Shown here one piece after another: positions 4,208 to 27,268 of a DNA stretch of 64,000 nucleotides (position 1 is the stretch's first letter; every line of letters begins with the position of its first letter). The notes beneath the pieces were generated by a model. That model was not told the DNA's origin, ran no database searches, and worked only from the letters and a program-made list of their open reading frames with translations. Made by a program: the position numbers and the translations under genes. Location of the stretch: the NCBI RefSeq assembly GCF_058153355.1, contig NZ_CM177019.1; one strand, given 5' to 3'.

Positions 4208-4225
4208 ATCAATTATATAGCTACC

Positions 4226-4257: not shown

Positions 4258-4371
4258 AAACTTATTAAGGTGAACTGATCAATCAGATGCGATTAACATG
4301 TGTAGAACCAGTAAGAATAAAATACGCCATGTATATAACATTACGACAATTCTAATATCTGCACATCAATG

Positions 4372-4408
4372 AAAATACAAACAACTTCCGGCAAAAAAGT
4401 GATACAAG
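4372..4408. repeat. Copy B of the imperfect ~35-bp direct repeat, upstream of mpaA
   Basis: See 376-410. Confidence 0.6.
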
Positions 4409-4497
4409 ATCGATAACATAGCGTTGAAGAAAAGGATTTGATAATCCGCAAAATTTGCACAACACTGCCTGTAATACTTCCTGAACCAGAGACGATT

Positions 4498-6166: not shown

Positions 6167-6284
6167 CTTTACTCCTTGTTGTCGCGGTGGTCTGCGGATT
6201 AAGCGCAAATAGCGTTTGCTGTGTTATTGACAGTTAGCATAAACTAGGTGTGACGTTAACTATATGTAAACAGGAAAGATAATC

Positions 6285-6788
6285 ATGTCACAAACCGTTC
6301 ATTTCCAGGGCAACCCGGTTACAGTAGCCAATTCCATCCCGCTGGCGGGTAGCAAAGCGCAGACTTTTACTCTCGTGGCAAAAGATCTGTCTGACGTCAC
6401 CCTCGGTCAGTTTGCGGGTAAACGCAAAGTGCTGAACATTTTCCCGAGTATTGATACCGGTGTTTGCGCCGCATCAGTACGTAAGTTTAACCAACTGGCA
6501 ACTGAGATCGACAACACCGTTGTGCTGTGTATCTCTGCCGATCTGCCGTTCGCCCAGTCTCGTTTCTGCGGCGCAGAAGGTCTGAACAACGTTATCACCC
6601 TCTCCACTTTCCGTAACGCTGAATTCCTGCAAGCCTACGGTGTGGCAATTGCTGATGGCCCACTGAAAGGTCTGGCAGCGCGTGCCGTTGTGGTTATCGA
6701 TGAAAATGACAATGTGATTTTCAGCCAGCTGGTTGATGAAATCACCACCGAGCCGGATTACGAAGCAGCTCTTGCTGTACTGCGCTAA
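6285..6788 (+). CDS. tpx: Thiol peroxidase (atypical 2-Cys peroxiredoxin)
   Basis: 167-aa [38 protein letters not shown]...; recognised as E. coli Tpx. Confidence 0.95.
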
Positions 6789-6796
6789 ACAACTGT

Positions 6797-6835
6797 GCCG
6801 TTCACTGAATCACCACCGGTGAACGGCAGTTTTTG
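6797..6835 (+). terminator. Rho-independent terminator of tpx
   Basis: gccgttcac - 12-nt loop - gtgaacggc followed by agtttttga, 9 bp after the tpx stop. Confidence 0.75.
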
Positions 6836-6929
6836 ATCTACCAATCCCACTATTTTCCAGAGTTCCTGCCACTATTCCCCCTAACCGTTGTGCATTAAGA
6901 TTGTTCTTTGCCATTATTAGCCCAGCGGA

Positions 6930-8984: not shown

Positions 8985-8992
8985 ACGTTGCC

Positions 8993-9013
8993 GCTGCGCC
9001 TGAACGGCGCAGC
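8993..9013. terminator. Short GC hairpin (gctgcgcc-tgaac-ggcgcagc) between the convergent orphan ORF and tyrR
   Basis: 8-bp stem, 5-nt loop; no U-run on either strand, so at best a weak or bidirectional pause/terminator. Confidence 0.4.
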
Positions 9014-9021
9014 CAGCACAA

Positions 9022-10563
9022 TCACTCTTCGCTTTTCTTCTGGTTTAAGCCATATTCCCGCAACTTATTGGCAATCGCGGTATGCGAAACGCCGAGACGT
9101 TTTGCCAGTTTGCGCGTGCTGGGATAATTGCGATAAAGCTGAGTTAATACCGAGCGTTCAAAACGGCTGGTAATTTCGTCCAGCGAACCTTCCATCGCAT
9201 CTTCGCCCACGGCTACCGTTGCGGCGTCATAATCCGGCAACAAAATATCCTGAGGACGCAGCTCATAGCCGTCCAGTTGTGTCAGTGCGCGATAGATAGC
9301 GTTCTTTAACTGCCGCACATTTCCCGGCCACGCATAACGCGTAAGTACAGTATTCAGGTCAGCGGCCAGTTTCGGACGCGGCACGCCCTGCTCGTCGGCA
9401 AAGCGAGCGACGAACAGTTCAGTTAACGGCATGATGTCCTGCGGACAGTCACGTAACGGCGGCAGATTGAGCGTCAACACGTTCAGACGATAATAGAGAT
9501 CTTCACGGAACACGCCTTTTTGCACCAGTTCGACCAAATTCTTCTGCGTAGCGCAAATAACCCTTACATCGACATGCACTTCATGATCTTCACCAACTCG
9601 ACGGAAAGTACCATCATTAAGGAAACGCAGTAATTTCGCCTGCATCCTTGGCGACATCTCGCCTATCTCATCTAACAGCACCGAACCACCGTTCGCCTGC
9701 TCAAAGAACCCTTTTTTACCTTCCGGAGCATGACCAAACAGTTCACTCTCGACCGCATCTTCCGGTATAGACGCGCAGTTCAGCGCCAGGTAAGGTTTGC
9801 CCGCTCGTGGGCTTGCCTGATGGCAGGCGTAGGCAAAGAGATCTTTACCTGTACCGGTGTCACCCGTAATCAGCAACGGCGCGCTTAGCATCGCCAGTTT
9901 CTGCGCCTGTTCGACAACATGCTTCATTTTCGGGCTGACGGCGACAATTTGACTGAAGGCACTGACGTCCTGTGCAGCGACATTCTGCAACTGACGGCCC
10001 ATACGAATCGTCGAGCGCAACATCACCACCGCACCGGTCAGAACGTGTTGATCATTTTCATCCTGAAGATAAACAGGCGTAATCTCCATCAGGAAATTCT
10101 GCCCATTAATAACGACATGCTCGTTATGCGAGTCTTGCGGTTCGCTTTCCAGCCAGCGTAAAAAATTAAAGCCGTTAATTAATTGCGCGGCGGTATGGTT
10201 GCGCAGGCGATCCAATTTTTGCCCAAAAAGCTGACAGCTCGCCGGGTTCGCCATATCCACTTTGCTTTTCATATCAACAGAAAGCACAGGTTCAGGCAAC
10301 GCCTCCAGTAACGCGCTCAACGCCAGATGCTCACGTTCGGAAGGCATCCACGGGACAGTACGCACATCGGTAACACCTGCAATACGGCGTATTTCGGCCA
10401 TCAGACTGCTGAAGCTCTCAAACTCCAGTTCAGCAAAATTGAGGTAGATTCGCCCAATGGGGTCAATCTCAATACCGCGTAAATCAATGCCTCTCAGCAC
10501 CAGTAAATCGAGTAATTCGCGGGTCAGACCAAGTCGGTCTTCACAAAAGACTTCCAGACGCAT
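9022..10563 (-). CDS. tyrR: Transcriptional regulator TyrR (sigma-54-interaction-type AAA+ domain, C-terminal HTH)
   Basis: ORF 9022..10590; start at MRLEVFCEDRLGLTRELLDLL gives 513 aa; GDTGTGKD Walker A and C-terminal HTH present; recognised as E. coli TyrR. Confidence 0.95.
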   Translation of the reverse strand: MRLEVFCEDRLGLTRELLDLLVLRGIDLRGIEIDPIGRIYLNFAELEFESFSSLMAEIRRIAGVTDVRTVPWMPSEREHLALSALLEALPEPVLSVDMKSKVDMANPASCQLFGQKLDRLRNHTAAQLINGFNFLRWLESEPQDSHNEHVVINGQNFLMEITPVYLQDENDQHVLTGAVVMLRSTIRMGRQLQNVAAQDVSAFSQIVAVSPKMKHVVEQAQKLAMLSAPLLITGDTGTGKDLFAYACHQASPRAGKPYLALNCASIPEDAVESELFGHAPEGKKGFFEQANGGSVLLDEIGEMSPRMQAKLLRFLNDGTFRRVGEDHEVHVDVRVICATQKNLVELVQKGVFREDLYYRLNVLTLNLPPLRDCPQDIMPLTELFVARFADEQGVPRPKLAADLNTVLTRYAWPGNVRQLKNAIYRALTQLDGYELRPQDILLPDYDAATVAVGEDAMEGSLDEITSRFERSVLTQLYRNYPSTRKLAKRLGVSHTAIANKLREYGLNQKKSEE

Positions 10564-10633
10564 GGGAACCTTCACCTGAAAAAAGAACAATTAATATGAT
10601 GATATGACACTATTTGGATAGCAGGAAGGTTTC

Positions 10634-10651
10634 TGTCAACAATCATTGACA
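10634..10651. promoter_or_regulatory. Candidate TyrR box (TGTCAA-N6-TTGACA) in the tyrR promoter region
   Basis: Palindrome tgtcaacaatcattgaca about 70 bp upstream of the tyrR start; resembles the TyrR-box consensus TGTAAA-N6-TTTACA (tyrR is autoregulated). Confidence 0.5.
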
Positions 10652-10710
10652 CAAAGACGGAAAAACGGGCACTTCGGCGTAAAGATATCCGGTCAGCACC
10701 CGATATTGCA

Positions 10711-11772
10711 TTATTTTTCGCTGGGCGTTTTGCCTTTTTGCAGCGTCTCTTTCACCTGACCGATAAGCTGACGACGGAAATCCCCGAGGCGAGGTTTGTC
10801 ATCGTCAATCCACGGCAGCGGGCGGCAAAGCTCCATAGCTTTAATCCCCAGTCGCGCCGTCAGAAGTCCAGCACCAATCCCCTGAGCTGCGCGGGTAGAC
10901 AAACGCGCAGCGAGATCTTGCGACATCCAGTCCATCCCCACTTCGCGCACCAGTTCGCTGGCTCCGGCGAAAGCGATATTCAGCAATACCAGCTTAAACA
11001 GGCGCAAACGGCTGTAATATCCCAGTTCAATGCCATACAGCGTGGCGATGCGATTGATCAAACGCAGATTGCGCCAGGCGATAAATGCCATATCCACCAG
11101 CGCCAGCGGGCTAACGGCGATCATTAACGTTGATTCCGCCGCTGAGCGACTGATTTCGCGCCGCGCCTGAGCATCTAAAACCGGCTGGACCAGATGAGCA
11201 TACAGGCTGACCACTTCACGATCGTTCTGCGTTTCATGGATTGACGCATACCAGCGTTGCAGCGCCGGATGGGACTGATCAATACCCGCCTGCTGCGCCA
11301 GTTTTTCACAAAATGCGCGGCCTTTGCCCGTGCCGTGGCTGTGCAATAAATCACGCGCTTCGTCGCGTTCATGGGCGCGCTGTCGCAAGCGCCATAAGCG
11401 CCGCCACTCTGTTACCACAGAACCTACGCCAGCGCCGATAATCAATGCCCCAGCGGCACATCCACCCAGCGCTACCCAATCCTGAGTTTGCCAGGCATTC
11501 ATCGTCCACTGCACGCCCTGTCCGACAACGCTTGCACCAAACAGAGCCAACCCGCCCATCACCATTTTGCGCCACAGGCTGCGTTTCGGACGTAACGCCG
11601 CGTCCATCACCGCTTCAACTTGCCCCTCTTCTTCCTGCGCTTCGTCGAGCGTGGCCGGGGCAAAATTTTGCGCCTGATTTTCGTCAAAGGTCTGCTGCGC
11701 CCTGAATTTTGGATTCTGATCGACCTCCAGTGGACCGTCGAAATCAATACGTGGTTTTAACGGTTCGGTCAT
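10711..11772 (-). CDS. ycjF: Inner-membrane protein YcjF (UPF0283 family)
   Basis: 353-aa [26 protein letters not shown]...; hydrophobic segments; overlaps ycjX stop (operon ycjXF). Confidence 0.9.
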
Positions 11773-13166
11773 CGCAATTTATCTCCTATTAAAAATTCCA
11801 GCGCAGCATCAAGGCGAATATGCGGCAACGGTTTGTCGACATCCATCACCTGCGGGCGAAACGCCTCAAACTGGAAGCCTTGCTTATCCCAGAACGCCTG
11901 GCCAGGCAAACGTGCGGGAACTTCGCCAGGATACACAGTGAGCGGTGCGCCATCGCTGAGTCGATTACCGCGCAGCGCCGGGATTTTCTCACCGTTAACA
12001 TCAATAATGCCGCTGGTGGTCGCCTGAACTGACGCCAGCCCCAGGCAGTCCATGCTGATCCCTTCGAACGCCGCATTTTGCCAGGCATCCTGAATCAGTT
12101 GTTGCAGTAATGAAACCATATTGGCGTGCTGATCGATGGTCACATGATCCGCTTTAGTGGCAGCAAACAATAGCTTATCGATAACCGGCGAAAACAAGCG
12201 CCGGAACAAGGTACGCTGCCCGTAGTGGAAGCTTTGCATCAGCTGCGTCAGCGCCAGACGCATATCATTGAATGCTTGTGGTCCACTGTTGAGAGGTTGC
12301 AGGCAATCCACCAGCACAATCTGCCGATCAAAGCGCAGAAAATGATTTTTATAGAACCCCTTCACCACTTTCTCGCAGTAATAATTAAACCGTTCGCGCA
12401 GCATTCCGGCATTGGTGTGCTTGTCGGCCTGTGCAAGTTTTGATTCGCCCCAGGCATCGACATCTGGCCACGGGAAGAATTGCAGCGCGGGCGCACCTGC
12501 CATATCGCCCGGCAAGACAAAACGCCCAGGCTGAATAAAGTGCAGCCCCTGCTGTTTGCAGTGGTGGAGATAATCGGTCCATGCGGCAGCAATGTCTGCA
12601 AGACGGTTTTCGTCGGCAGGTGCTAGTGGGTCCAGCCCTTCGCACATCATTCGCCATTTTGCCGACCATTCGCCGCGCTGACCATTGAGTAAGCCTGTCA
12701 TCTGGCGCGACCAGCTTAAATAGTCCTGCGCCAACATCGGCAAGTCGAGTAACCATTCGCCAGGATAATCCACTATCTCCAGATACAACGTGGAAGTGTC
12801 TTTGAAGTGACGCAACAGCGAATCGTTCGATTTATAGCGTAGCGCCAGGCGAATCTCACTGACGCCGCGTGTTGGGGTCGGCCAGGCGGGAGGATCGCCA
12901 TATAACTGCGCCAGCCCTTCATCGTAGGTGAAGCGCGGAATGCCAAAGTCACGCTGGGGAATGCGTTTTACGCCCAGCAGGCGCTCTTCACGCACCGCAC
13001 TTAATAGCGGCAAGCGTGCTCCGGCATGAATATTGAGCAACTGATTGACCATCGCAGTGATAAACGCGGTTTTGCCGCTGCGGCTAAGTCCGGTTACAGC
13101 GAGGCGCAGATGTCTGTCGACACCCCGATTCACCAGCGCATTAAGTTCATTTTTAAGTCGCTTCAT
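11769..13166 (-). CDS. ycjX: Conserved P-loop NTPase YcjX
   Basis: ORF 11769..13253; start at [35 protein letters not shown] gives 465 aa with Walker A GLSRSGKT. Confidence 0.9.
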
Positions 13167-13310
13167 TGCTGTCCTGTGGACCAGAAAAAAATCATTCGTA
13201 AGGATATGAATGTGGGGGCCATGCCCTTGATTATCAACTGCCCGTGTTGTCATCTTGAGGCGAACTCCATAAGATGTGCAGCATTCACGTTCGGACGGAG
13301 TTCCTGACCT

Positions 13311-14309
13311 ATGTCCCCTACTATTTATGATATTGCCAGGGTTGCCGGCGTATCAAAATCCACCGTATCACGCGTGCTGAATAAGCAAACCAATATCTCC
13401 CCGGAAGCGCGCGAAAAAGTGTTACGGGCCATTGAAGAATTACAGTATCAGCCAAATAAACTGGCCCGCGCGCTGACCTCTTCGGGCTTTGATGCCATTA
13501 TGGTGATTTCTACCCGCTCGACCAAAACTACGGCGGGTAACCCGTTTTTCTCCGAAGTTTTGCATGCCATTACCGCCAAAGCGGAAGATGAGGGTTTCGA
13601 CGTGATATTGCAGACGTCGCACAACCCAGCTGAAGACTTACAAAAATGTGAAAGCAAAATTAAGCAGAAAATGATTAAAGGCATTATTATGCTAAGTTCG
13701 CCAGCAGATGAGTCTTTTTTCGCCCAACTCGATAAATACGATATTCCGGTGGTAGTAATTGGCAAAGTTGAAGGTGAATATGCCCATGTTTATTCTGTCG
13801 ATACCGATAATTTTGGCGACAGTATTGCGCTGACCGATGCGCTAATTGAAAGTGGACATAAAAATATTGCCTGCCTACATGCTCCGCTTGATGTCCATGT
13901 TTCGGTTGACCGCGTTAATGGTTATAAGCAAAGTCTGGAAGATCATAATATTGCAGTGCGCAATGAGTGGATCGTTGACGGTGGTTATACCCATGAGACA
14001 GCACTACAAGCCGCGCGGGAATTATTAAGCCAGTCACCGTTGCCTGAGGCAGTGTTTGCTACTGACAGCCTGAAATTAATGAGCATTTATCGTGCGGCGG
14101 CAGAGAAAAACATTGCTATTCCGCAGCAGTTAGCGGTGGTGGGTTATAGTAATGAAACGCTGTCGTTTATATTAACGCCTGCACCGGGCGGCATCGATGT
14201 TCCGACGCAGGAGTTAGGTCAACAAAGCTGCGAGTTATTATTCCGCTTAATTGCCGGAAAACCGTCACCACAAAATATTACCGTTGCCACGCATATGTCG
14301 TTGAAATAA
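13311..14309 (+). CDS. ycjW: LacI-family transcriptional repressor YcjW
   Basis: 332-aa ORF with N-terminal HTH ([22 protein letters not shown]) and periplasmic-binding-protein-like effector domain. Confidence 0.9.
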
Positions 14310-14323
14310 ATGCCAGCTACGTT

Positions 14324-14407
14324 GCCTGAATGCCGGATGCGATGCTGGCGCATCTTATCCGGCCTACATTTATAAACCGGATAAAGTACTCGCGCCGCAT
14401 CCGGCAA
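14324..14407. repeat. REP/BIME-type extragenic palindromes between ycjW and ompG
   Basis: Two REP-like units (gcctgaatgccggatgcg...cgcatcttatccggcctaca and ccggataaagtactcgcgccgcatccggcaa) in the convergent intergenic space. Confidence 0.65.
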
Positions 14408-14419
14408 TTTAGCACATTA

Positions 14420-15325
14420 TCAGAACGCGTAATTCACACCGACACCTGCATAATGGAATTTATCGCTATCGCCTTCGTCGTGATCCTGCCACTCAAACGC
14501 GTATTCCAGCGAAACGGAAAGACCATTCTGGAAATCATAACCGTAAAACAAACCAAGACGGTTAAAATCATGGCCCTCACGTTCGATATCATCCTGCCAG
14601 TCCCAGTTACTCCAGCGATCCAACCCAATGCGCGTATACGGTGTCACCGAGTGGTTGCCGAGCGTCAGCGGTAAATAGGCGCGAATTTCTTGCGTGGAGA
14701 ATTCACCGTTATTGCGGCTGTCGTCCATATTGAAGCCGCGCTCGAGATAATAGTTCACTCGCAAGGCAACCGTTTCGTTGAAGGTATATTGCAGACCCGT
14801 TTCCGTTTCGACACGGGTATCAGCATAACCGGTTGTATTCAGATCGTTGGCAAATTTATACATCGACAGCCAACCGTTGAAACGTAAATCGTCAGTCAGT
14901 TTCACGTCCCAGTCTGGCGCGATTTTCCAGCGCTGCATATTTGCCGTGTCTTTACCCGGTTCATCAACGTAGTGATAACCATAGTTACGGAAACCACCGG
15001 TCAGGCCGAAACTGAAATCATCGCTTTCGAGAAACTGATAATGCACTTCCAGTTCCGGGCGATCAAACCAGGTTCCACGTTTACCCGCGCTATAATCTAC
15101 TGGCCCTTCCTGATAATAAGCCAGCGATATTCTCCACGGCCCGTTGGCAGCATTAAAATAGACGGAAGGCTCCGCCAGCCCGTCCATATCTTCGCCATAA
15201 CCCTCAACGTTTTCTATTTCGTACATCGCGCCGATATTAAAGTGCCAGTCGTTTTTTTCCTCAGCCTGTGCGCAGGCCATTCCCGCACACATCACCAGTG
15301 CGGTACAGGGTAATAACTTTTTCAT
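14420..15325 (-). CDS. ompG: Outer membrane porin OmpG
   Basis: 301-aa ORF with signal peptide MKKLLPCTALVMCAGMACAQA and beta-barrel-type alternating pattern ending ...GVGVNYAF. Confidence 0.9.
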   Translation of the reverse strand: MKKLLPCTALVMCAGMACAQAEEKNDWHFNIGAMYEIENVEGYGEDMDGLAEPSVYFNAANGPWRISLAYYQEGPVDYSAGKRGTWFDRPELEVHYQFLESDDFSFGLTGGFRNYGYHYVDEPGKDTANMQRWKIAPDWDVKLTDDLRFNGWLSMYKFANDLNTTGYADTRVETETGLQYTFNETVALRVNYYLERGFNMDDSRNNGEFSTQEIRAYLPLTLGNHSVTPYTRIGLDRWSNWDWQDDIEREGHDFNRLGLFYGYDFQNGLSVSLEYAFEWQDHDEGDSDKFHYAGVGVNYAF

Positions 15326-15369
15326 TATTGTTCCTTGTATTATCCTGGGGGAATGCCTTCCCCCTGTAT

Positions 15370-16452
15370 TTAGCGAATTGCTATTTCCGTTTCTGCATCA
15401 AAGAAATGACATTTGGTCATATCGAAATGAATAGTGACGTTTTCTCCTGCATGATAATCATTTAACGCACCGGCACGGACCACCAGCTCGTGCCCCCCAA
15501 CCGTGGTGTAGAGCATAAATTCCGCACCGGTTAATTCCGCCACGCTAATTTTGGCGGAAATGTTATTTTCCTCTTGCGCATCCGGATGAATATCTTCCGG
15601 GCGTATTCCCATCACGATGGGCTTATGCAAACTTTCCTGCGTTTTTAGAACCGCTAATTTATCTTCGGGAATGGTTAATTTAAGCGTTTCCGTAACGAAT
15701 TTATCACCATCGATCGTGCCGCGAATAAAATTCATTGCTGGTGACCCAATAAATCCGGCAACAAACATATTCGCCGGTTGGTTATAGACCGTTTTCGGCG
15801 CACCGACCTGCTGAACAATCCCATCCTTCATAATGACAATCCGCGTCGCCATGGTCATCGCTTCGGTCTGATCGTGGGTCACGTAGATCATGGTGGTGTT
15901 CAGTTTCTGATGCAGCTTGCTGATTTCCGCGCGCATTTGTACGCGCAGCTTGGCATCCAGGTTAGAGAGCGGTTCATCCATCAAAAACACGCCCGCTTCG
16001 CGCACAATCGCCCGTCCGAGCGCCACACGCTGGCGTTGCCCGCCGGAAAGCGCACCCGGCTTGCGTTTCAGGTACTCACGCAGGCCAAGGATTTGCGCCG
16101 CCCAGTTAACCCGCTCATCAATCACCTCTTTGGCGATTTTTTGCATCTTCAGGCCAAACGCCATGTTGTCGTAGACCGTCATATGCGGATACAGCGCGTA
16201 GTTCTGGAAAACCATCGCGATATTGCGCGCTTTGGCCGGAACGTCGTTCATTCGTTTGCCGTCGATCAACAGATCGCCGCCGCTGATCTCCTCAAGCCCG
16301 GCAATCATACGCAGGGTGGTCGATTTACCGCAGCCCGACGGACCGACAAACACGATGAACTCTTTATCGGCAATCTCCAGGTTGAAGTCCTTCACCACAT
16401 GCACCTGGTTATCGTAGATCTTTTGAATATGTTGTAACGAAAGCTGTGCCAT
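15370..16452 (-). CDS. ycjV: ABC transporter ATP-binding subunit (MalK/UgpC-like), apparently intact
   Basis: 360-aa ORF with Walker A GPSGCGKST, signature LSGGQRQR, Walker B FLMDEPLSNLD and C-terminal TOBE-like domain. Confidence 0.85.
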   Translation of the reverse strand: MAQLSLQHIQKIYDNQVHVVKDFNLEIADKEFIVFVGPSGCGKSTTLRMIAGLEEISGGDLLIDGKRMNDVPAKARNIAMVFQNYALYPHMTVYDNMAFGLKMQKIAKEVIDERVNWAAQILGLREYLKRKPGALSGGQRQRVALGRAIVREAGVFLMDEPLSNLDAKLRVQMRAEISKLHQKLNTTMIYVTHDQTEAMTMATRIVIMKDGIVQQVGAPKTVYNQPANMFVAGFIGSPAMNFIRGTIDGDKFVTETLKLTIPEDKLAVLKTQESLHKPIVMGIRPEDIHPDAQEENNISAKISVAELTGAEFMLYTTVGGHELVVRAGALNDYHAGENVTIHFDMTKCHFFDAETEIAIR

Positions 16453-16465
16453 GTTGATTCCTTTG

Positions 16466-17125
16466 CTATACGTTTTGCCAGAAGGCCGATAACCGCGGCC
16501 AGGTCAGAGATTCCGTTGAGGGCAGCAACAGTTGCGCCCCGGTTAAGCTCGTGCCGATCCCCACCGAGCGCATACCGCTGGCGTTAATGGCGTCAATACC
16601 CGCCTGCGCATCTTCAATGCCGATACATGCCTGCGGCGGCACGCCCAGCCCGGCACAGGCGGCGAGAAAGATTTCCGGATCCGGTTTCGAGTGTTTAAGT
16701 TGGGAAGCGTCCGCGCAGAAGGTGAAAAACTCGCGCAGTTCCAGCGCCGCTAAAATTGTTGGGGCATTCAGAGAGACGGAGGCCAGCCCTACCGGGATGC
16801 CTTGCGCCCGAAGATCTGCCAGCAAAGGCCGAATTCCCGGCAGAACAGCGTTAACCGTCAGTTCGCGCAGTGAGTGGACGTAGAGCAGATTTTTGCGATA
16901 CGCCAGTTGCGCCCGCTCCTGTGGGTTAAAGTCGCCCTCTTTGCCCCCGTGTTGCAGAATGCGTCGCAGGGACTCATCGCGGCTGATCCCTTTTAACGTC
17001 TCGTTAAATTGCGCATCGATGCTGATGCCGATTTCGGCGGCAATCTGCTGCCATGCCTGGAAGTGCAGATGTGCGGTGTCGGTGATCACGCCATCCAGAT
17101 CGAAAATTACCCCTTGTAGTTTCAT
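16466..17125 (-). CDS. ycjU: Beta-phosphoglucomutase (HAD superfamily)
   Basis: 219-aa ORF with HAD motif [11 protein letters not shown]. Confidence 0.9.
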
Positions 17126-19389
17126 TCATCCTCCTGATGCGTGGTAGCGGTCCCATTGAAGGGCAAAATAAAATCACCCAAACAGAAAACAGATTCCTCA
17201 GCCACGGATATAAGCTGACCGTTCAAACGCATTGAAACGGGCGCAGAAGTTCGAATCGCAATACGCTGCGCGTCGAGAGTGACCTGTAATTCGCAGCCCT
17301 GCCAGAACAGAGGGAAAGATAACTGTTGCCACTGCTCAGGTAACGCTGGGTTCAGATGTAATTCGCCGTCGCGCACGCTGACTCCGGCAAAACCCTGAAT
17401 CGCCCCCAGCCAGATAGCGCCAGTTGCGGCGGCATGGATACCGTCATCGCAGCTATGCGGATCAGCACCAAGATCGATTTCACTCCCCTCGCGCCAGAAC
17501 GGGTAACTCTGCGCAAGCAAGCCACAACGCGCGGCAACAATGCCGTGGATCGCTTTACTCAATGACGAGTCGTGAATGGTGCGCGGTTCATAAAATTGCA
17601 GATTGGCGAGACAAGAGGCCGCTGAAAATTGTTCTGGTAGCATGTAATTGAGCATCACCACATCGGCCTGCTTGAGGATCTGCATCTCGTTCACTTCTGC
17701 GCGTGAATAATCCAGCAGAATGGTTTGTTTGCCTGCTGCCGCTTTGTATTTCGCCAGATCTATCGCCGGTTTCGCCATAAACGAATCATCCTGCGGCAAA
17801 ACGCCGTCGGGCTGAATTTCTGGCATCCACAGCTCTTTGAGGAACATGTCGGCACGATGAATAAACGCATCGTCGCTACAGCCAAACTGGCGAGCAATAT
17901 TCAGTGCCTGTTGGACGTTGTAGCAGGCCATATAACTTGTGTATGCGTTATTGTTAACGTGTTCGGTATATTCGTCTGGCCCAATAACATCATGAATTTC
18001 CAGACGATCGTTAACCCTTACCGCGCGGCTAATCCAGAACTTTGCGGTCTCCAGCAGTAGCGCCATGCCTTCGTGAGCAATGAAGCTTTCATCCCCCGTT
18101 ACCTGCCAGTATTGAATAACCGCCCAGGCGATATCGGCAACCAGATGATGTTCTGCCTGCGCTGAGGCCACTTTTTGCCGCAGCCCGGTACGAATGTTAA
18201 TGGCGGCAAATTCCGGCGTTTCTTCTTCGCCGCTACGTGCGCTCTCCCACGGAAACAGCGCGCCCTGCCAGCCATTGCGTCGCGCTTTCTCCTGCGCGCC
18301 AGGCAAGTTGTGCCAGCGATAGCGCAGTAAACTTCGGGCAATCGTCGGTTCGCTAAACAGATGGAACGGCAGCAGGAACACTTCCGTATCCCAGAAAACG
18401 TGGCCTTTGTAGCCTTCGCCGGTTAAGCCTTTCGCCGCAATGCTGCTACGCTCGTCGTGGGCGGGCGTCATAATACGTAAATGATAAAGCGCATAGTCTA
18501 ACGCCCGCTGATCGTGCGCATCGCAACTGTTTACCGTGACACGACGTTTCTGCCACCATTGCTGCCAGTTTTCTGTGGATGCTGCAAGAAGTTGGTCATA
18601 ACTCTGCTGCGCGCACATTTCGAGCTGGCGAAGCGACGCACTGCCCCACTCGTCTAAAGCAGCTTGTCGGTCGTCCCGCCAGGCAATCCACACCCGCTTT
18701 TGCAAGGTCAGTGTCTCACCTGTGCGAAGTTGCGCGCTGGTATGTTGCAGCAAACGGCGCTCTTTTGCGGTATAGCACTGCTGAACGTCACCACTCGCCT
18801 GACAGTGACAACTGATTGCCACATCACTGCGCCCATCCTGGGTGGTGTAGATCCCCTGCATCAGGTGCTGACCGAACACCCGCACCTGGGTTTCGTCAAG
18901 ATGCTGGCGACCGTGGTTGGTTTGCGTGGCGTTAATGCCTGTTGAGATCAGCACTGATGCCTCGGCGTCCAGCGGGGTAATACTGATTTCCAGCGCGATC
19001 AACGGCAGTTGATCTGTCGAAACAAAGCGACGACTTGCAAGGGTGAACCCTGCGCCGTCGCTGGTGCGCCAGATAACACTGCGGCGTAATTCTCCACTGG
19101 CAAAGTCAAGCTCACGCTGCCACGCTTCGCGGGATAACGAAAAAATCTCGCCGTTTAGGGTAATTTCCATTCCCACCACGTCTGGCAGATTCACCAGTTC
19201 GTTGATTTCACCTTTCCCGGCTCGATGATAAAGCCCTGCCAGATACATGCCGCGCGTCTGCCGCGTGTAATCTTCTTCATGGCTGGCACGAAGCCCAAGA
19301 TAGCCGTTTCCCTGCGCCATTAATGAGGCATATTTATTCAGGGTATGCTGGCTGAAATGGGGTTCCGTTAATGTTACTGGCCTGGTCAT
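17122..19389 (-). CDS. ycjT: Kojibiose phosphorylase (GH65 family)
   Basis: 755-aa ORF; position and size match E. coli ycjT; 4-bp overlap with ycjU. Confidence 0.9.
17140..17156. promoter_or_regulatory. 17-bp motif cgtggtagcggtcccat at the ycjT/ycjU junction; exact copy at 27066-27082
   Basis: Exact 17-mer match seen directly; candidate operator (possibly for YcjW). Confidence 0.4.
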
Positions 19390-20441
19390 AATTCCACACG
19401 CGTCCCTGTTTCTGCGGATTGATACAGCGCCGCCACCAGTTGCTGGATGATGTACCCTTGCTCGGCGTCGGCAATCATCACTGGCTTGCCCTGTACGTGA
19501 TTGATAAAGGCTTCCATGCTGCGCAAATGACGGTTGTCGTCGGCCAGTTCCCGTTGCATCAACGTCATTAATTCACCGTTGTTGTCGGTATAGATATGCG
19601 CCGGAAATAGCGTGGCTCCCGCTTTATCGCCGCAAAAGCTGACGTTCATAATCGACTGTTCGCGGATGTTGAGTGCAAATGATGTCTCCAGCCAAAGAAT
19701 GCCGCCGTTATGAAATTCAATGGTGCCAAACAGCGAATCTTCGACGCTGTAGGTTGCCGGGTCCCACTCGCCAAATTGACCACAGCTCTTTTGCGGGCCG
19801 ATCTTTTGAAAGCTATGCGCATTCACGCTTTTCACCGCCGGAAAGCCCAGCACATACATCGCGGCATCCAGCATATGAATGCCGATGTCGATCAGCGGGC
19901 CACCGCCCTGCAGTTCTTTATTGGTAAAGACACCCCAACCGGGAACGCCGCAGCGACGCAGGGCGCGAGCGGTCGTCACGTAAATCTCACCCAAAACGCC
20001 GTTGGTCACCTGTTCACGCAGTTGTTGCGTATCAAGGGCAAAACGATGGTGAAAGTCGTAGGCCAGCACCTTGCCCTGTTTGCGCGCGGTATCGCACATT
20101 TCCCGCGCCTGTTCTGGCGTCATGGCGGGCGGTTTCTCGCACATCACATGGCAGCCTGCCTCCAGCGCCATCAGGGTATGCTCGTAATGAAAACGGTTAG
20201 GTGAACAGACGCTTATCACGTCAGGTTTTACCGCCAGCAGCATGGCCTGCGGATCGTCCCACACGGATGCGTTCCCGTATTTCTCTGCCAGCGCCTGCGC
20301 CTGGGAAAGGCGGCTGTCACAGACAGCCACCAGTTCCAGATCGTTGCGGGTGCAGTAGTACGAAGCATGAACCTTATCCGCCACCTGGCCCGCGCCTATT
20401 ATCGCGACCCGCAGCGGAGAGCTTGTCATTGCACTTTTCAC
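19386..20441 (-). CDS. ycjS: Gfo/Idh/MocA-family NAD-dependent oxidoreductase (3-keto-D-glucoside reductase type)
   Basis: 351-aa ORF with N-terminal Rossmann motif RVAIIGAGQVADKVH. Confidence 0.85.
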   Translation of the reverse strand: MKSAMTSSPLRVAIIGAGQVADKVHASYYCTRNDLELVAVCDSRLSQAQALAEKYGNASVWDDPQAMLLAVKPDVISVCSPNRFHYEHTLMALEAGCHVMCEKPPAMTPEQAREMCDTARKQGKVLAYDFHHRFALDTQQLREQVTNGVLGEIYVTTARALRRCGVPGWGVFTNKELQGGGPLIDIGIHMLDAAMYVLGFPAVKSVNAHSFQKIGPQKSCGQFGEWDPATYSVEDSLFGTIEFHNGGILWLETSFALNIREQSIMNVSFCGDKAGATLFPAHIYTDNNGELMTLMQRELADDNRHLRSMEAFINHVQGKPVMIADAEQGYIIQQLVAALYQSAETGTRVEL

Positions 20442-20450
20442 AAAGACCTC

Positions 20451-21239
20451 TTAGCAGGTGCGCAACCAGGCCAAAGAATCACGGTACGCCTGAGCAGGAT
20501 CTTCTGCCCGGATACGCCCTTCATACACCACATAGCCCTGATAGTTATCGGCGCGCAACTGTTCAAACAGCGCGTGGAAATCGAGGGTGCCGCTGCCCGG
20601 CTGATAGCGATGATTATCGGCAATATGCACATGACCAAGCAGGTCACGGTTGTCATGCAGCGCCTGCGCCAGGTTATCCTCTTCGATGTTCATGTGATAG
20701 AAATCGCCGATAATCTGCACATGTTTAAGGTTGTTTTCGACGATGTAACGACGAGCATCGGCGAGCGTGTTGATCATGTGGTCCTGATAGCGGTTTAGCG
20801 GTTCGAGATACACCACCGTTCCGGTACGCGCGGCCACCTTTTCCAGGAAACGCAGGGAATCGCTCACCATTTGACGATCGCCGTCCAGGCTGCGCGGTGA
20901 GGTCATCGGCGGTAAGCGGAAGGTAAACATGCCCCACGCAGCCGGAACGACAATACCTTTGCCGCCCACTTCCGCCAGCGCCTCAAGAATGCGCTCGATC
21001 TGCTTTAAACCATTAAGACGACGTTCTTCGATAAAGTCGCCAATCCAGCCGTCATAGCCGCCGCAGGCAGTGGTCACCGGTAAACCGGTTTCTTTGATCG
21101 CTGCTTTGACTTCTTCGATATTGTTAACCAGCAGTTTGCCGTCAATCTCAAAACCATCAAAACCCATCTCTTTGATATAACGAAATTTCTCCAGAATATT
21201 TTCCGGGAAAAAGGCCTGATTCTGTGTACCGATTTTCAT
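20451..21239 (-). CDS. ycjR: Sugar phosphate isomerase/epimerase (TIM-barrel, xylose-isomerase-like)
   Basis: 262-aa ORF; operon position matches ycjR. Confidence 0.85.
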   Translation of the reverse strand: MKIGTQNQAFFPENILEKFRYIKEMGFDGFEIDGKLLVNNIEEVKAAIKETGLPVTTACGGYDGWIGDFIEERRLNGLKQIERILEALAEVGGKGIVVPAAWGMFTFRLPPMTSPRSLDGDRQMVSDSLRFLEKVAARTGTVVYLEPLNRYQDHMINTLADARRYIVENNLKHVQIIGDFYHMNIEEDNLAQALHDNRDLLGHVHIADNHRYQPGSGTLDFHALFEQLRADNYQGYVVYEGRIRAEDPAQAYRDSLAWLRTC

Positions 21240-21255
21240 TTTTCCGTTCTTAGAA

Positions 21256-22308
21256 TTAAAAAGTTACGCCCATTTTGATGCTCTGTTCCGGATGCTGGTC
21301 GACATACTGCATGTAGCTTTCCGGGCTGTTAGCAAAGGTCACCACCGGGTCGATTAAATCTTCACAATTGAGATAACCGTTCATCAGCAGTTCCCAGCAG
21401 GTTTCTTCAATACGCTTGCGACTCCAGCGCGGATAATCCGGGTTCGGTTCACTGCACGCACGAGAGAAGACAATTTTGGCGTTGTTGAAATGCGCTTCGC
21501 GTCCGAGGTTAAAACCTTCAGCAAACGGTTTGGCAAACGCAACATAGGAGATGGTGCCGCCATAAGCCAGGCCGCGCAGTGCCGATTGCAGCGCGTCGGC
21601 GTAGCCGCTGGTTTCGATAATCACATCGGCACCCTGCTTGCCGGTCAGCGTTTTAATCTCTTTGCCTACATCCGTGCCAATGGGGTTAAGGCAGAAATCC
21701 GCGCCGTGGCGACGGGCAATATCACAGCGATGAGCGATAGGATCGACACCAATCACCACCGACGCGCCAGCGCGTTTTGCCAGTTGAATGGCAATTTGAC
21801 CAATCGCGCCAAGCCCTACCACCACCACAAAATCGCCCACGCGCACGTTGGCATCGCGCACGCCGCTCATGGCAAACTGCGCCGGGTCGTAACAGACGGC
21901 GTTTTTCCACGAGCTACCTTGCGGCATTTTGCGCAGTTTGTAGTTATTCACCGCGTTAATGATGACCGTTTCGGAAAGCGGGCCGTAGCCGCATACGCTG
22001 TCGCCCACCGCGTAGTCGGTAACCTCGCTGCCGCACTCGATAATGTCGCCAACCACCATGTTGCCAAGCTGGAACTTGCCAAACTCAATGCCGCGCGGCG
22101 CATCTGCCGGACGCGGGGTGAACATCTGCCATTCGCCATTAAAGTCTTCATTAATAAACGGGCTGGCGGCGCGGAAATCGACCACTTCCGTCCCGTGTTT
22201 CGGCGCGCCGAACCGCACGCGGATCTTCACTTCATTGGCTGAAATCGCCCTGTCTTCATACTCCACCAACGCGGCAACGCGCGGTGCTGTGGCTACTAAC
22301 TTTTTCAT
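21256..22308 (-). CDS. ycjQ: Zn-dependent alcohol/sugar dehydrogenase (MDR family)
   Basis: 350-aa ORF with GLGAIGQIAIQLAK NAD-binding motif. Confidence 0.85.
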   Translation of the reverse strand: MKKLVATAPRVAALVEYEDRAISANEVKIRVRFGAPKHGTEVVDFRAASPFINEDFNGEWQMFTPRPADAPRGIEFGKFQLGNMVVGDIIECGSEVTDYAVGDSVCGYGPLSETVIINAVNNYKLRKMPQGSSWKNAVCYDPAQFAMSGVRDANVRVGDFVVVVGLGAIGQIAIQLAKRAGASVVIGVDPIAHRCDIARRHGADFCLNPIGTDVGKEIKTLTGKQGADVIIETSGYADALQSALRGLAYGGTISYVAFAKPFAEGFNLGREAHFNNAKIVFSRACSEPNPDYPRWSRKRIEETCWELLMNGYLNCEDLIDPVVTFANSPESYMQYVDQHPEQSIKMGVTF

Positions 22309-22338
22309 GTAAAACTCCTTGTCAAGAAACTGGCCGCT

Positions 22339-23181
22339 TTAGCCCTTCACGCCACCGGCGGTCAAACCACTCTTAATAAAACGTTCCGAAAGTGCATACA
22401 TAATCACCACCGGCAATGCGGTCACCAGCGAGGCCGCCATCATTCGGCCCCAGATGTAATCAGGGGTACTGAACAGCGCGTTCAGGCCTACCGGTAAAGT
22501 GAAATTGCTGGCGCTGGAGAGGAAAATCGAGGCAAACAGATAGTCGTTCCATGCCACCATAAAGCAGTAGACGAACACGGATATCAGCCCGGACATCGCC
22601 AGCGGTACCGTGATGCGGAAGATGATTTGCAACCGGTTGAGGCCATCCATCATCGCCGCTTCTTCGATTTCATCGGGGATGGTGTCGAAGTAGCTTTTCA
22701 GCATAAACACGGCGGTAGGCAGGGTTTGCGTCACCATGGTGATGATCAGCGCCATCTCGGTGTCGTAAATGCCAAGCGCAGTGATGATTTTGAACAGCGG
22801 CACCACCAGCAAAATGCCGGAGAACATGTACACCGTGTAGAAGCTGGCGTTGATGGTCATTCGCCCTTTAAAGCGCAGGCGGGAAAGCGCGTAAGCCCCG
22901 AGAATGCCGAGAAATACTGCTATCACGGATGAAACTACCGACACCACCAGGCTGTTACGGAAATAATCGACAAACGGGAAAATCACCGGGTTAAAAATGT
23001 CGACGTAATGCTCCAGCGTCCACTGCTGTGGCAGCAGCGTAGGATGCAGCGAGATCGCCTCTTTCGCGCTTTTGAACGAGGTCATCAGCATCACAAAAAA
23101 GGGAAACAGCGTGATGATGAGAAACAGCGCCAGCCCGCAGTAAAAACCGATGCGACTGAGTGTGCGTTTATTTGTTGCCAT
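22339..23181 (-). CDS. ycjP: ABC sugar transporter permease
   Basis: 280-aa hydrophobic ORF; MalG-like. Confidence 0.85.
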   Translation of the reverse strand: MATNKRTLSRIGFYCGLALFLIITLFPFFVMLMTSFKSAKEAISLHPTLLPQQWTLEHYVDIFNPVIFPFVDYFRNSLVVSVVSSVIAVFLGILGAYALSRLRFKGRMTINASFYTVYMFSGILLVVPLFKIITALGIYDTEMALIITMVTQTLPTAVFMLKSYFDTIPDEIEEAAMMDGLNRLQIIFRITVPLAMSGLISVFVYCFMVAWNDYLFASIFLSSASNFTLPVGLNALFSTPDYIWGRMMAASLVTALPVVIMYALSERFIKSGLTAGGVKG

Positions 23182-24049
23182 TGAGGTTCACCCGTTTTCT
23201 GGTCAGCAGAATGACAGCGAAAATAATGATGAAGAGCACCACTGAGATCGCCGCCGCTTTCCCTAAGTCATTAAAGGCAAAGGCGGTTTTGTAGAGATAG
23301 ACGCCGAGAATATCGACCTTGGTCGTCAGCAAATAAACGTCAGCGAACATGTAGAACATCCAGATGGTACGCAGAGTCACCACCGTCGCCAGGACCGGCA
23401 TAATCGCGGGCAGCGTGACGATGCGAAACCGTTGCCAGGCATTCGCGCCGTCCATCTCTGCCGCTTCGTACAACGATTTATCAATGGTCTGCAAAATCGC
23501 CAGAAACGAGATAAAGGCATACGGGAAGTAGCGCCAGATGGCGAACAGCACCACCAGCACAAAACTACTGCCCGGGTTATCGAACCACAGCGGCGCCTGC
23601 TCATAGAGATGCAGAAGATCGACGCCGAGGTAGTTCACAATGCCGTAGCCGTTGTTGAACATGTATTTCCAGGCGAACACCAGCGAAATGGATGGCGTTA
23701 CGTAGGAGAGGATCACCAACGAACGCGCGGTCTTGCGCAGGCGAAACTCGCGGTTGAAAAACATCGCCACTGCCAGCCCGAGCACGGTGCTGCCCGCCAC
23801 CACCAGCGCGGTATACCAGACCGTCATCCACAGCGAGTGCCAGAAGCCGGGATCGGAGAGAATACGCACATAGTTGCTCACCCCAACAAACGTTGCCTCG
23901 ATGTTGGGATTGAGCGGCAGACGTAAAAAACTGATTTCGATATTCGACACCATTGGCCACGCCACCAGACCGCCCAGCAGTAATAAGCTGGGCGCGAGAA
24001 GCAGCAGCGCAAAGGGCATATCGGAACGACCTGAAAAAAGCCTGTTCAT
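23168..24049 (-). CDS. ycjO: ABC sugar transporter permease
   Basis: 293-aa hydrophobic ORF; MalF-like; overlaps ycjP start. Confidence 0.85.
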   Translation of the reverse strand: MNRLFSGRSDMPFALLLLAPSLLLLGGLVAWPMVSNIEISFLRLPLNPNIEATFVGVSNYVRILSDPGFWHSLWMTVWYTALVVAGSTVLGLAVAMFFNREFRLRKTARSLVILSYVTPSISLVFAWKYMFNNGYGIVNYLGVDLLHLYEQAPLWFDNPGSSFVLVVLFAIWRYFPYAFISFLAILQTIDKSLYEAAEMDGANAWQRFRIVTLPAIMPVLATVVTLRTIWMFYMFADVYLLTTKVDILGVYLYKTAFAFNDLGKAAAISVVLFIIIFAVILLTRKRVNLNGNK

Positions 24050-24069
24050 TGCGGATTCCTGTCCTGGGA

Positions 24070-25362
24070 TTAGTGCTGTTCGATCAGTTCATCCAGCTTT
24101 TTCTGGCTCGCTTGCAGCGTGGTTGAGAGATCGGCTTTCCCCACGGTGACGTTATGCACCATTGAACTCACCACACCAGAGCCCGTGACATCGCCCATGC
24201 GGGTAAAGTTTTTGTCCCCTACCGCACCAAAAACCTGAATGTTTGGCAGTTCGCTAATCAACTGATTCGGCAAGTCTCCCAGCGCCTTAATCACATCGTT
24301 ATCTTTCCAGGTGGCAGTCGTCACAACCGCTTTGTTCACCGGCAGCGCCGCGCCTGGTGACATCATCACCCAGTCGGCAATGTTGTCTGCCTGCTCCATA
24401 AAGGTGACAAATTTTTCCGCCGCTTCCGTCTCTTCGCTGTTTTGCCCGGCGGTAATGGTCAGCGAGGTCAACATGCCGTAGACCGCCGAGTTTTTCTCGG
24501 TTGGCACCACGAAACCGACATTTTTCGGGTCACCTTCTTTAATCACAGCCGGAAGGATATAGGTGGAGTAAATCGCCATCGGCGCGGTGCCGTTCATAAA
24601 GGCGTCTTTCACTTCCATAATGTCGTTAGAACCCGGCATGGTGTTGGCAGCAAGGTCGCGGTAATAGGTCAGCGCCTGCATCATCTCCGGCGTATCAAGA
24701 GTGATTTTGCCTTCGGCGTTAAAAACGTTGGCCTGATTGGATAACGCAAACTGAGAGAACGATTGTTCCGTCAGTACGCTTTCTGCCGTCGGCAGTGCAA
24801 TACCGTATTTTTTATTCGCCGGATCGTTCAGTTTCTGTGCGACATCCAGCAACTGTTGCCAGTTTTTCGGCTCATCCAGCCCGGCTTTTGCCAGCACATC
24901 TTTGCGATACCAGATACCGCCAATCCATGCGCTGACAGGAACACCGGTCCAGGCGCTACCATCTTCGGTGCGCACAATCCGCAGAACGCCGTCATAAAAC
25001 GCGCCTTCACCGACATTACTGATGACCGTAGCAACCGCTTTGCGATCGATAAGCTGTTCTTTGTCCATCACTTTCGCGTAGTCATGGCTGGTTTCGATCA
25101 CTTCCGGCAGCGAGCCGCTACGGGAAAGGGTGATGACTTTGGTGTTATAGGCATCTTCTTCCACCGGCACTTGTTTAACAGTGATGCCTGGGTTTTCTTT
25201 TTCAAAACGCGCAATTAACTGACTTATAACCGCCTGGCGTTCCTGTTCCACCGAAGAATGCATAAACTCGATGGAGACATTCGTTTTATTTTCTTCTTTA
25301 CAACCTGAAATCAGGGCGCAGGAAACCAGTGCTGATAACAGCACGATTTTAGATTTAATCAT
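24070..25362 (-). CDS. ycjN: Periplasmic sugar-binding protein of ABC transporter
   Basis: 430-aa ORF with lipoprotein-type signal (MIKSKIVLLSALVSCALISGC). Confidence 0.85.
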   Translation of the reverse strand: MIKSKIVLLSALVSCALISGCKEENKTNVSIEFMHSSVEQERQAVISQLIARFEKENPGITVKQVPVEEDAYNTKVITLSRSGSLPEVIETSHDYAKVMDKEQLIDRKAVATVISNVGEGAFYDGVLRIVRTEDGSAWTGVPVSAWIGGIWYRKDVLAKAGLDEPKNWQQLLDVAQKLNDPANKKYGIALPTAESVLTEQSFSQFALSNQANVFNAEGKITLDTPEMMQALTYYRDLAANTMPGSNDIMEVKDAFMNGTAPMAIYSTYILPAVIKEGDPKNVGFVVPTEKNSAVYGMLTSLTITAGQNSEETEAAEKFVTFMEQADNIADWVMMSPGAALPVNKAVVTTATWKDNDVIKALGDLPNQLISELPNIQVFGAVGDKNFTRMGDVTGSGVVSSMVHNVTVGKADLSTTLQASQKKLDELIEQH

Positions 25363-25375
25363 GAGATGTTCCTTT

Positions 25376-27055
25376 TTATTTAATCCACATAACCTGCCAG
25401 GGGCGCAGCGTTATTTCATTACCCACTATATCAACTTCACTAATCAGATCCCGACCGTGCAGGTCAGTAATATTTATATGCTGAATATTTTCACTGACAT
25501 TAAACAAGCCCGTCAGACAATTACCATCCGCGTTGCTTCTTTGAATACGCATTACGGATGAATTAACCGTATCGATGGTAAAATCATTATCTGGATGAAA
25601 CTCGTTATGACTGCGACGAATTTTAATTAGTCGCGACAATTCATGATATACCGCGTGCCTTAACGTCGCTTTATTGTTCAGTTCGGTCGTGATCTCTTCG
25701 CTGGTGTATTTTTTACGGTTAATCGCACGGTTATATCCCAGTTTTTCGACACCTGCGTAATCATTACGCGAGCCCAGAATACTTTGAATATATATCGCGG
25801 GCACACCGGGGAAAATTAACAAAATCGCATGGGCAAGGATAAACCTGGCGCAACGTTCTTCATCGCTACTCTCGCGGCGGCTTAACGCATCCATATAAGT
25901 GACATTCATTTCATACGGGCTACGCGTACCGTCGGGATTATTTTTCCAGTTAACTAATGCCCCTTCCTGCTGTAATGCCTCGACCAGCGCTAATATTTCG
26001 CTTTCGGGTAGCAAGCCACGCAGTGGGTTAAGCCCGATGCCATCGTGAGAGGCGAGGAAGTTAAACCAGGTGGTGTTGCTGGAAGGTAGTGTCAGGTTTT
26101 GCGCCCACGCACAAAGCGCCTCAACGTTCTGTTTTTGCACCGCATGCAGCACCAGCGGCGGCAGCGAGAACTGGTACACCATATGCGCTTCGTCATCACC
26201 GTTGCCAAAGTAAGCAATGTTGTCTTTGTGCGGAACATTGGTCTCGGTAATGATCACTGTACCTGGTGCTACGTCATCAATAATCGACCGTAACAGCTTG
26301 ATAATCAGATGTGTTTTTTCCAGATGGATGCAGCTTGTTCCCGGCTCTTTCCACATAAAGCCAACGGCATCCAGGCGGACATACTCAGCACCTTTCTCAA
26401 GGTAACACAGTAAAACATCCACCATCGCCAGTAACACTTCAGGGCTACGGTAATTCAGGTCAATTTGATCGTCGCTAAAGGTGGTCCATAAATGGCGCGT
26501 TGAATGATCGCGCATCTGGAATGGCGTTAATAACGGTAACGCACGCGGGCGAGTGACGGCGCTGAGATCGGTTTGCGGGTCAACGGCAATAAAAAAATCT
26601 TCAAAGCCTGGCTGCTGCTGTAAATAGTTTTTAAACCATTCACTTTTTGCCGACATATGGTTGCAGACAAAATCAAACATTAAATGACTGCATTCACCGA
26701 GTTGCTGAATATCCTGCCACTCCCCCGCTTCACTGGCGACCTGATGATAATCAATTACCGAAAAGCCATCATCAGATGACCATGGATAAAACGGCAACAA
26801 ATGAACATGTGAAAAAATGCTTTGCAGCCAGTGATGGTAAAACTGATTAAATGTGGGTAGTGGTTTTAAATCATTACTGTGAAATTGATCGGCATAGGTA
26901 ATTAACACGACATCACTTTCATCCCAGTGTTTTTTACGTCGTTGTGTAATTAATCTTTTCGCACTCTCAAGACGCGTTACAAGTTTCTGTAAATGAGTCG
27001 CGGTAAATGTTCCACCGTAGATTTCGTCCAGGTAATCCGTAATTTTCTGTTTCAT
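25376..27055 (-). CDS. ycjM: Glucosylglycerate phosphorylase (GH13, sucrose-phosphorylase-like)
   Basis: ORF 25376..27082; start at MKQKITDYLDEIYGG gives 559 aa. Confidence 0.85.
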   Translation of the reverse strand: MKQKITDYLDEIYGGTFTATHLQKLVTRLESAKRLITQRRKKHWDESDVVLITYADQFHSNDLKPLPTFNQFYHHWLQSIFSHVHLLPFYPWSSDDGFSVIDYHQVASEAGEWQDIQQLGECSHLMFDFVCNHMSAKSEWFKNYLQQQPGFEDFFIAVDPQTDLSAVTRPRALPLLTPFQMRDHSTRHLWTTFSDDQIDLNYRSPEVLLAMVDVLLCYLEKGAEYVRLDAVGFMWKEPGTSCIHLEKTHLIIKLLRSIIDDVAPGTVIITETNVPHKDNIAYFGNGDDEAHMVYQFSLPPLVLHAVQKQNVEALCAWAQNLTLPSSNTTWFNFLASHDGIGLNPLRGLLPESEILALVEALQQEGALVNWKNNPDGTRSPYEMNVTYMDALSRRESSDEERCARFILAHAILLIFPGVPAIYIQSILGSRNDYAGVEKLGYNRAINRKKYTSEEITTELNNKATLRHAVYHELSRLIKIRRSHNEFHPDNDFTIDTVNSSVMRIQRSNADGNCLTGLFNVSENIQHINITDLHGRDLISEVDIVGNEITLRPWQVMWIK

Positions 27056-27065
27056 GTTGCCTTTC

Positions 27066-27082
27066 CGTGGTAGCGGTCCCAT
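27066..27082. promoter_or_regulatory. Second copy of the 17-bp motif cgtggtagcggtcccat, immediately upstream of the ycjM start codon
   Basis: Exact match to 17140-17156. Confidence 0.4.
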
Positions 27083-27221
27083 GAAACGAGAGACTACTCC
27101 GCAGAAAATAAACTGTCAATTGAGCACAAGGGTTTTAGTCACGCAGGAAATCATTTTTTACCAGGGAAAAAGCGTATTTGTGAGCTGACGCAAATAATCT
27201 ATGGGGATGTAAATAAGGTGT

Positions 27222-27255
27222 GACAGAAAAAGTAAACGGCGCATAAGCGCCGCTT
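27222..27255 (-). terminator. Rho-independent terminator downstream of pspE
   Basis: On the minus strand: cggcgc-ttat-gcgccg hairpin followed by tttacttttt. Confidence 0.55.
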
Positions 27256-27268
27256 AGGGTGGATTCTT

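Follow-up and report, generated by a model that had tools for sequence, protein, structure and literature searches.

An intact, ancestral-type ycjV allele in Escherichia coli, predicted to encode the nucleotide-binding subunit of the YcjNOP-V sugar importer

Introduction

One important question raised by the ycj cluster of Escherichia coli is whether ycjV, the gene for the ATP-binding subunit of a putative sugar importer, is complete in a strain other than K-12, and what a complete gene would say about the strain and about the conclusions reached with K-12. The E. coli YcjV protein has ATPase activity in vitro (PMC7658222), and no transport assay for it was found in the literature searched. 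Strain engineers are well aware that ycjV is a pseudogene in K-12 and treat the locus as a neutral site for integration (PMC10380740); the word "pseudogene" is absent from the main text of the ycj literature searched. Here, the locus was analysed in a 64-kb stretch of DNA (64,000 nucleotides of contig NZ_CM177019.1, hereafter named the window), for which an original prediction had proposed a full-length ycjV, a complete transporter and a potential utilisation pathway of the glucoside/kojibiose type.

Results

The ycjV gene and its product

In the ORF listing, ycjV spans positions 15370..16452 of the minus strand; it starts with ATG and has 360 codons plus the stop, with no internal stop codon. 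The uninterrupted 360-aa ORF of the original prediction is therefore correct in its coordinates, and its strand is the minus one. As in K-12, the gene sits between ycjU (pgmB) and ompG. A ribosome-binding site (AAGGA, 16459..16463, minus strand) was read from the sequence 6 nt 5' of the ATG, inside the 13-nt spacer that follows the ycjU stop codon. The K-12-like position, together with the strong purifying selection described below, indicates that this ORF is not a chance frame.

A motif search of the protein located six ABC motifs in the canonical order, which bears out the claim that all canonical motifs are present. These are the Walker A or P-loop (GPSGCGKS, aa 37-44, 16321..16344), the Q-loop (FQ, aa 82-83), the ABC signature (LSGGQ, aa 135-139, 16036..16050), Walker B (VFLMDEP, aa 155-161, 15970..15990), the D-loop after it (SNLD, aa 163-166) and the H-loop (THD, aa 192-194, 15871..15879), those with nucleotide positions being given on the minus strand. 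Three Pfam domains were recognised, namely ABC_tran (PF00005; aa 21-162; 110.5 bits against a cutoff of 25), OB_MalK (aa 236-288) and TOBE_2 (aa 282-351, covering profile positions 2-76 of 76). The score for the NCBIfam UgpC subfamily model NF008653 was 484.5 bits (cutoff 432), whereas the score for the MalK equivalog model was 430.3 bits, below its cutoff of 568. Its domains and subfamily score place YcjV among the CUT1-type importer ATPases of the MalK/UgpC/MsmX kind, and the score below the MalK cutoff indicates that YcjV is a paralogue and not MalK itself.

The ATPases of importers with solved structures align end to end with YcjV; the best match was MsmX (6YIR, E 1.2e-148), and AlgS, MalK and SugC were also retrieved. 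When the last 55 aa of YcjV were used alone, the C-termini of AlgS and MsmX were recovered. Codons 321-360 (15373..15492, minus strand) form the C-terminal part of the TOBE-type regulatory domain, which is conserved with AlgS and MsmX and is the segment lost by the K-12 frameshift. The single-sequence AlphaFold2 model of YcjV was too poor to be used (mean pLDDT 35.6, pTM 0.24), and structural inference was left to the Pfam limits and the alignments with homologues. The YcjV protein of the window is identical to a database protein present on 973 contigs, and 28 of the 30 cluster members examined are 360 aa long.

Comparison with the K-12 allele

The original prediction took ycjV to be a pseudogene in K-12, and this proved right. 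Between ycjU and ompG, the MG1655 sequence (NC_000913.3) has two annotated pseudogenes, ycjV b1318 (1380821-1381789) and ymjB b4524 (1381789-1381902), and the reading frame is broken by a one-base deletion. The proposed alignment of the two alleles, in which an equal length would have contradicted the pseudogene status, gave 1083 nt in the window and 1082 nt in K-12, with 54 substitutions and one gap (94.9% nucleotide identity). The gap falls in a G6 homopolymer at nt 955-960 of ycjV (15493..15498 of the window, minus strand, read as CCCCCC on the plus strand), which is G5 in K-12 and in some wild strains; this is the frameshift that creates ycjV'/ymjB. With G5, the frame shifts after Gly320 and a stop is reached after 322 aa, while ymjB persists in the next frame. 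The product thus lacks residues 321-360 and with them about the latter half of the TOBE_2 match.

The six G residues at 15493-15498 show that the K-12-type lesion is absent from the window. When one G was restored in silico to the K-12 gene, a 360-aa product was obtained that shares 357 of its 360 residues with the window protein, the differences being A232S, D264E and V339I. The two alleles thus occupy the same locus, although the window allele is synonymously divergent from that of K-12 (dS 0.25).

Partner genes of the importer

None of the twelve genes of the ycj cluster is interrupted in the window. Apart from ycjV itself, ycjM, N, O, P, Q, R, S, T and U, ompG and ycjW are full length, have no internal stops and encode proteins with 94-100% amino acid identity to those of K-12. 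YcjN, YcjO and YcjP are 98-100% identical to their K-12 counterparts. The substrate-binding lipoprotein YcjN (430 aa; ycjN at 24070..25362, minus strand) carries the lipobox LISGC with C21, a residue that was reported to be diacylated (PMC11543891). The permeases YcjO (293 aa; 23168..24049, minus strand) and YcjP (280 aa; 22339..23181, minus strand) have EAA motifs at aa 195 and aa 174, respectively. The gene set of a complete type I ABC importer, that is, a binding protein, two permeases with EAA loops and an ATPase, is accordingly present in one operon. The proposal that this strain retains a complete YcjNOPV transporter agrees with this, as the ycjN, ycjO, ycjP and ycjV genes are all intact in the window and are predicted to provide every subunit.

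The glucosylglycerate phosphorylase homologue is encoded by ycjM at 25376..27055 (minus strand), with the K-12-equivalent start (MKQKITDY) at 27055 and a longer ORF reaching 27082; the longer ORF calls for ycjM and ycjX merely reflect in-frame start codons upstream. Between the permease genes and ycjV, and also on the minus strand, lie the full-length genes ycjQ (21256-22308), ycjR (20451-21239), ycjS (19386-20441), ycjT (17122-19389) and ycjU (16466-17125), and the spacers within this stretch (16466..22308) measure -4 to 30 nt. The last gene of the operon, ompG (14420..15325, minus strand), encodes a monomeric porin and follows ycjV after 44 nt. Across the cluster the gene spacing ranges from -14 to 44 nt, as expected of one transcript. 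The LacI-type operon repressor gene ycjW (13311..14309) is in divergent orientation, on the plus strand (for the repressor role, see PMC6599011). In the genomes 2017-02-2CC and E400634, YcjT is called only "glycoside hydrolase family 65 protein" by PGAP.

Regulatory and transcript elements

YcjW is the repressor of ycjM-V and ompG and comes off its operator DNA in vitro when kojibiose is present (PMC6599011). The 64-kb window contains exactly two copies of a 14-nt imperfect palindrome, TGGGACCGCTACCA, which has CG at its centre; 0.03 copies would be expected. One copy (27068..27081, minus strand) lies just upstream of the ycjM start and the other (17142..17155, minus strand) within the 3' end of ycjT and ahead of ycjU; both are identical in K-12. 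Since two YcjW ChIP peaks were described by Luhachack et al. at positions matching these copies (PMC6599011), both are candidate YcjW operators.

A consensus scan of positions 13000-28500 for promoters and terminators gave counts no higher than those of shuffled sequence. Only two hairpins were noted in that region, one after pspE (27233-27256) and one in the 44-nt spacer between ycjV and ompG, and no internal terminator was evident in the scan between ycjU, ycjV and ompG. The spacer hairpin, GGGGGAAGGCATTCCCCC on the transcribed strand (15347-15364), is GC-rich and has no U-run downstream on that strand. This hairpin could serve as an mRNA-stability or processing element.

Frequency and selection of ycjV in E. 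coli

The gene is present in 5,001 of 5,426 complete RefSeq E. coli genomes. An 82-mer with K-12 flanks and the G6 run was found exactly in 4,378 of the 4,995 matching RefSeq records (complete genomes), and the K-12 81-mer with G5 in 369 records, most of which are K-12 laboratory derivatives. The other 248 records, the window itself among them, differ in the flanks of the G run. Since at least 4,378 of the 4,995 records have G6, a full-length ycjV says nothing special about the strain from which the window comes. Pairwise Nei-Gojobori comparisons of the window, K-12, B2 strain M1/5, O157:H7 and other alleles gave dN/dS ratios of 0.014-0.05 at dS 0.07-0.26, indicating that ycjV is kept by purifying selection across the species.

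Three annotated YcjV proteins of other E. coli were compared with that of the window. That of 2017-02-2CC (WP_000057969.1) is identical to the window protein over its 360 aa, its gene being 99.5% identical at the nucleotide level with synonymous differences only, whereas those of M1/5 (WP_000057991.1) and O157:H7 F6667 (WP_000057976.1), also of 360 aa, each differ from it at 4 aa. All three are annotated as "ABC transporter ATP-binding protein". An intact ycjV is the ordinary and already annotated state in E. coli.

At the nucleotide level, the window ycjV is about 95-96.5% identical to most other intact alleles. The divergence extends to the cluster as a whole: positions 13000-28000 are about 93.5-94% identical to most E. 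coli, with 5,001 records in the 90-95% band and only 5 at 99% or more, whereas the flanks of the cluster are about 97% identical. Against K-12, ycjT and ycjU are about 91% identical. The ycj cluster of the window is a rare, deeply divergent allele class common to few genomes, such as 2017-02-2CC and E400634.

Outside the cluster, positions 1-13000 of the window are covered to at least 80% by only about 1,275 of the 5,426 genomes. A 684-aa ORF lies there between tpx and tyrR (6930-8984, plus strand), two genes that are adjacent in K-12. It is absent from K-12 and is annotated as "hypothetical protein" in the closest genome. A search of this ORF against Pfam, NCBIfam and PADLOC gave no match.

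Inactivating lesions and loss of the cluster

Just two runs of at least six identical bases occur in ycjV, the G6 run and an A6 run at nt 311-316 (16137..16142, minus strand, read as TTTTTT on the plus strand), and the gene has been broken independently at both of them, by G6->G5 and by A6->A7.

That the G5 frameshift is a laboratory artefact of K-12 is contradicted by two wild isolates, 2014C-3051 and 08-00022, in which it is also present and which PGAP marks as "frameshifted". The wild-strain product, of 322 aa and differing at two residues from that of K-12, is found on 167 contigs. The possibility that these wild G5 alleles are PacBio homopolymer errors was rejected, as the exact 322-aa product recurs on those contigs from several sources. 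Three G5 haplotypes differ from one another by up to 21 substitutions, yet they are identical from nt 854 onward, a pattern that is better explained by a single origin spread by recombination than by recurrent mutation. From these sequences, the G5 alleles probably share one origin. Recurrent hot-spot mutation or phase variation at the G run was not supported, given this shared 3' part and the restriction of the alleles to particular lineages.

The A7 lesion, which truncates the product to 111 aa, is separate from and independent of G5. It was found exactly in 29 complete genomes, including UPEC 536, F11, ECONIH2 and MS 200-1, and the 111-aa product occurs on at least 1,000 contigs, strain 536 included. 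With A6 at 16137-16142, the window does not carry this 536-type lesion. Two BH100 assemblies disagree at the A run, which is A6 in substr. MG2014 and A7 in substr. MG2017.

Larger losses also occur. In one genome (DXMF6-3R), an IS1-associated deletion runs from ycjM into ycjV. The whole ycjM-ycjW cluster is missing from about 9% of complete genomes, 4,942 of the 5,426 covering at least 80% of it; in MRSN346647 the cluster is absent and pspE directly adjoins ycjX. Because about 9% of genomes do without the cluster, and because separate inactivations of ycjV are seen in at least two lineages, the ycj cluster is dispensable in nature. Subtracting the G5 and A7 alleles and the absences, and counting those lesions only, leaves an upper limit of about 85% for the share of complete genomes with an intact ycjV.

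Discussion

The results support, with a probability of about 0.9, the reading that positions 15370-16452 hold an intact, ancestral-type E. coli ycjV allele whose predicted product is the nucleotide-binding subunit of the type I ABC sugar importer YcjNOP-V. For the strain that carries the window this has little weight, as E. coli usually has the gene complete and it is the laboratory reference that carries a broken copy. The significance lies with K-12: what has been concluded there on the Ycj sugar system, such as the lack of growth on kojibiose, was concluded with a strain whose transporter ATPase is truncated.

It is highly improbable that the intactness of ycjV here, or the frameshifts elsewhere, reflect homopolymer errors of sequencing or assembly. 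Both frameshift sites are homopolymers and the BH100 assemblies conflict at one of them (A6 against A7). However, G6 was read in at least 4,378 independent records, the K-12 G5 recurs in 369 records that include many MG1655 resequencings, and the truncated products of wild strains are encoded on 167 contigs (322 aa) and on at least 1,000 contigs (111 aa). A second alternative is that an intact ycjV is without consequence. If another ATPase of the MalK family, MalK or UgpC, energised YcjOP, the state of ycjV would have no effect on the phenotype and K-12 would not be transport-deficient. MalK and UgpC have been reported to be interchangeable in E. coli, and ycjV has been lost repeatedly while the rest of the operon stays, both of which fit such redundancy. 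Multitask, exchangeable nucleotide-binding domains are documented in the subfamily of YcjV and can serve several importers, so that the status of ycjV need not decide the phenotype (PMC7658222). This exchangeability is limited, however, as YcjV could not replace MsmX (PMC7658222). In addition, the dN/dS ratios of 0.014-0.05 at dS up to 0.26 argue for selection that preserves ycjV itself in the majority of lineages, and MG1655 shows no growth on kojibiose minimal medium (PMC6599011). Taken together, a replacement of YcjV by a related ATPase seems distinctly unlikely.

The compound transported is a matter apart from the intactness of the subunit. At somewhat less than even odds, YcjV may be intact and functional in an importer that carries something other than kojibiose or glucosylglycerate (for instance a guloside/glucoside or another derivative), in which case kojibiose-type utilisation would not be seen. 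The notion of such utilisation rests on the enzymes YcjT and YcjM and not on the transporter: YcjN gave no thermal shift with any sugar tested, kojibiose, glucose and maltose included, a result that, as its authors point out, does not prove the absence of binding (PMC11543891). In the K-12 annotation, YcjQ, YcjR and YcjS are assigned to D-guloside/D-glucoside interconversion, whereas YcjT and YcjM, from the same operon, are annotated as kojibiose phosphorylase and glucosylglycerate phosphorylase. The regulatory data point both ways as well, since kojibiose frees YcjW from its operator in vitro and yet, in the view of Luhachack et al., may not be the natural inducer (PMC6599011).

Returning to the intact YcjV subunit as part of its own importer, a doubtful extension is that the role of the ycj system has been left unresolved partly because growth and induction work used K-12, with its incomplete importer ATPase. 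Strains with an intact allele would then take up and grow on the ycj substrate, be it kojibiose, glucosylglycerate or a guloside, and so would K-12 after repair of the G run. No physiological study of intact-ycjV strains was found in the literature on ymjB or on ycjM and glucosylglycerate. If this extension were true, the independent losses (G5, A7, the IS1 deletion and the absence of the whole cluster from about 9% of genomes) would represent niche-specific loss of the pathway. Because the K-12 ATPase is truncated, Ycj function should be tested where the allele is intact, either naturally or after repair of K-12, and the repair is easy since the lesion is a single base.

In the mechanism that we propose, ycjV would be translated from the YcjW-repressed ycjMNOPQRSTUV-ompG transcript, and a dimer of YcjV would join the permeases YcjO and YcjP and the binding lipoprotein YcjN to make up the importer. 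Homology with MalK and MsmX suggests that the two YcjV subunits bind the EAA loops of the two permeases. The dimer would close on two ATP molecules, each held by Walker A and Walker B of one subunit and the LSGGQ signature of the other, and the C-terminal OB/TOBE domains would keep the two subunits together. ATP hydrolysis by YcjV would then drive the import cycle of the permeases for whatever YcjN delivers. We infer on this basis that YcjV energises YcjNOP in this strain.

Two known systems resemble the one proposed. MsmX of Bacillus subtilis (6YIR) is built like YcjV, with a nucleotide-binding domain and a C-terminal regulatory domain, and the two proteins, which are 64% identical (PMC7658222), align over residues 1-360. 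They differ in genetic setting, as msmX is an orphan gene whose product serves several CUT1 importers, whereas ycjV lies within its own operon. In B. subtilis, YcjV was expressed and active as an ATPase but did not complement an msmX null mutant (PMC7658222). The same architecture and motifs are found in E. coli MalK (1Q12, 2R6G) and the UgpC subfamily, with MalK aligning over residues 1-352 of YcjV. MalK, for its part, makes regulatory contacts with MalT and EIIAGlc.
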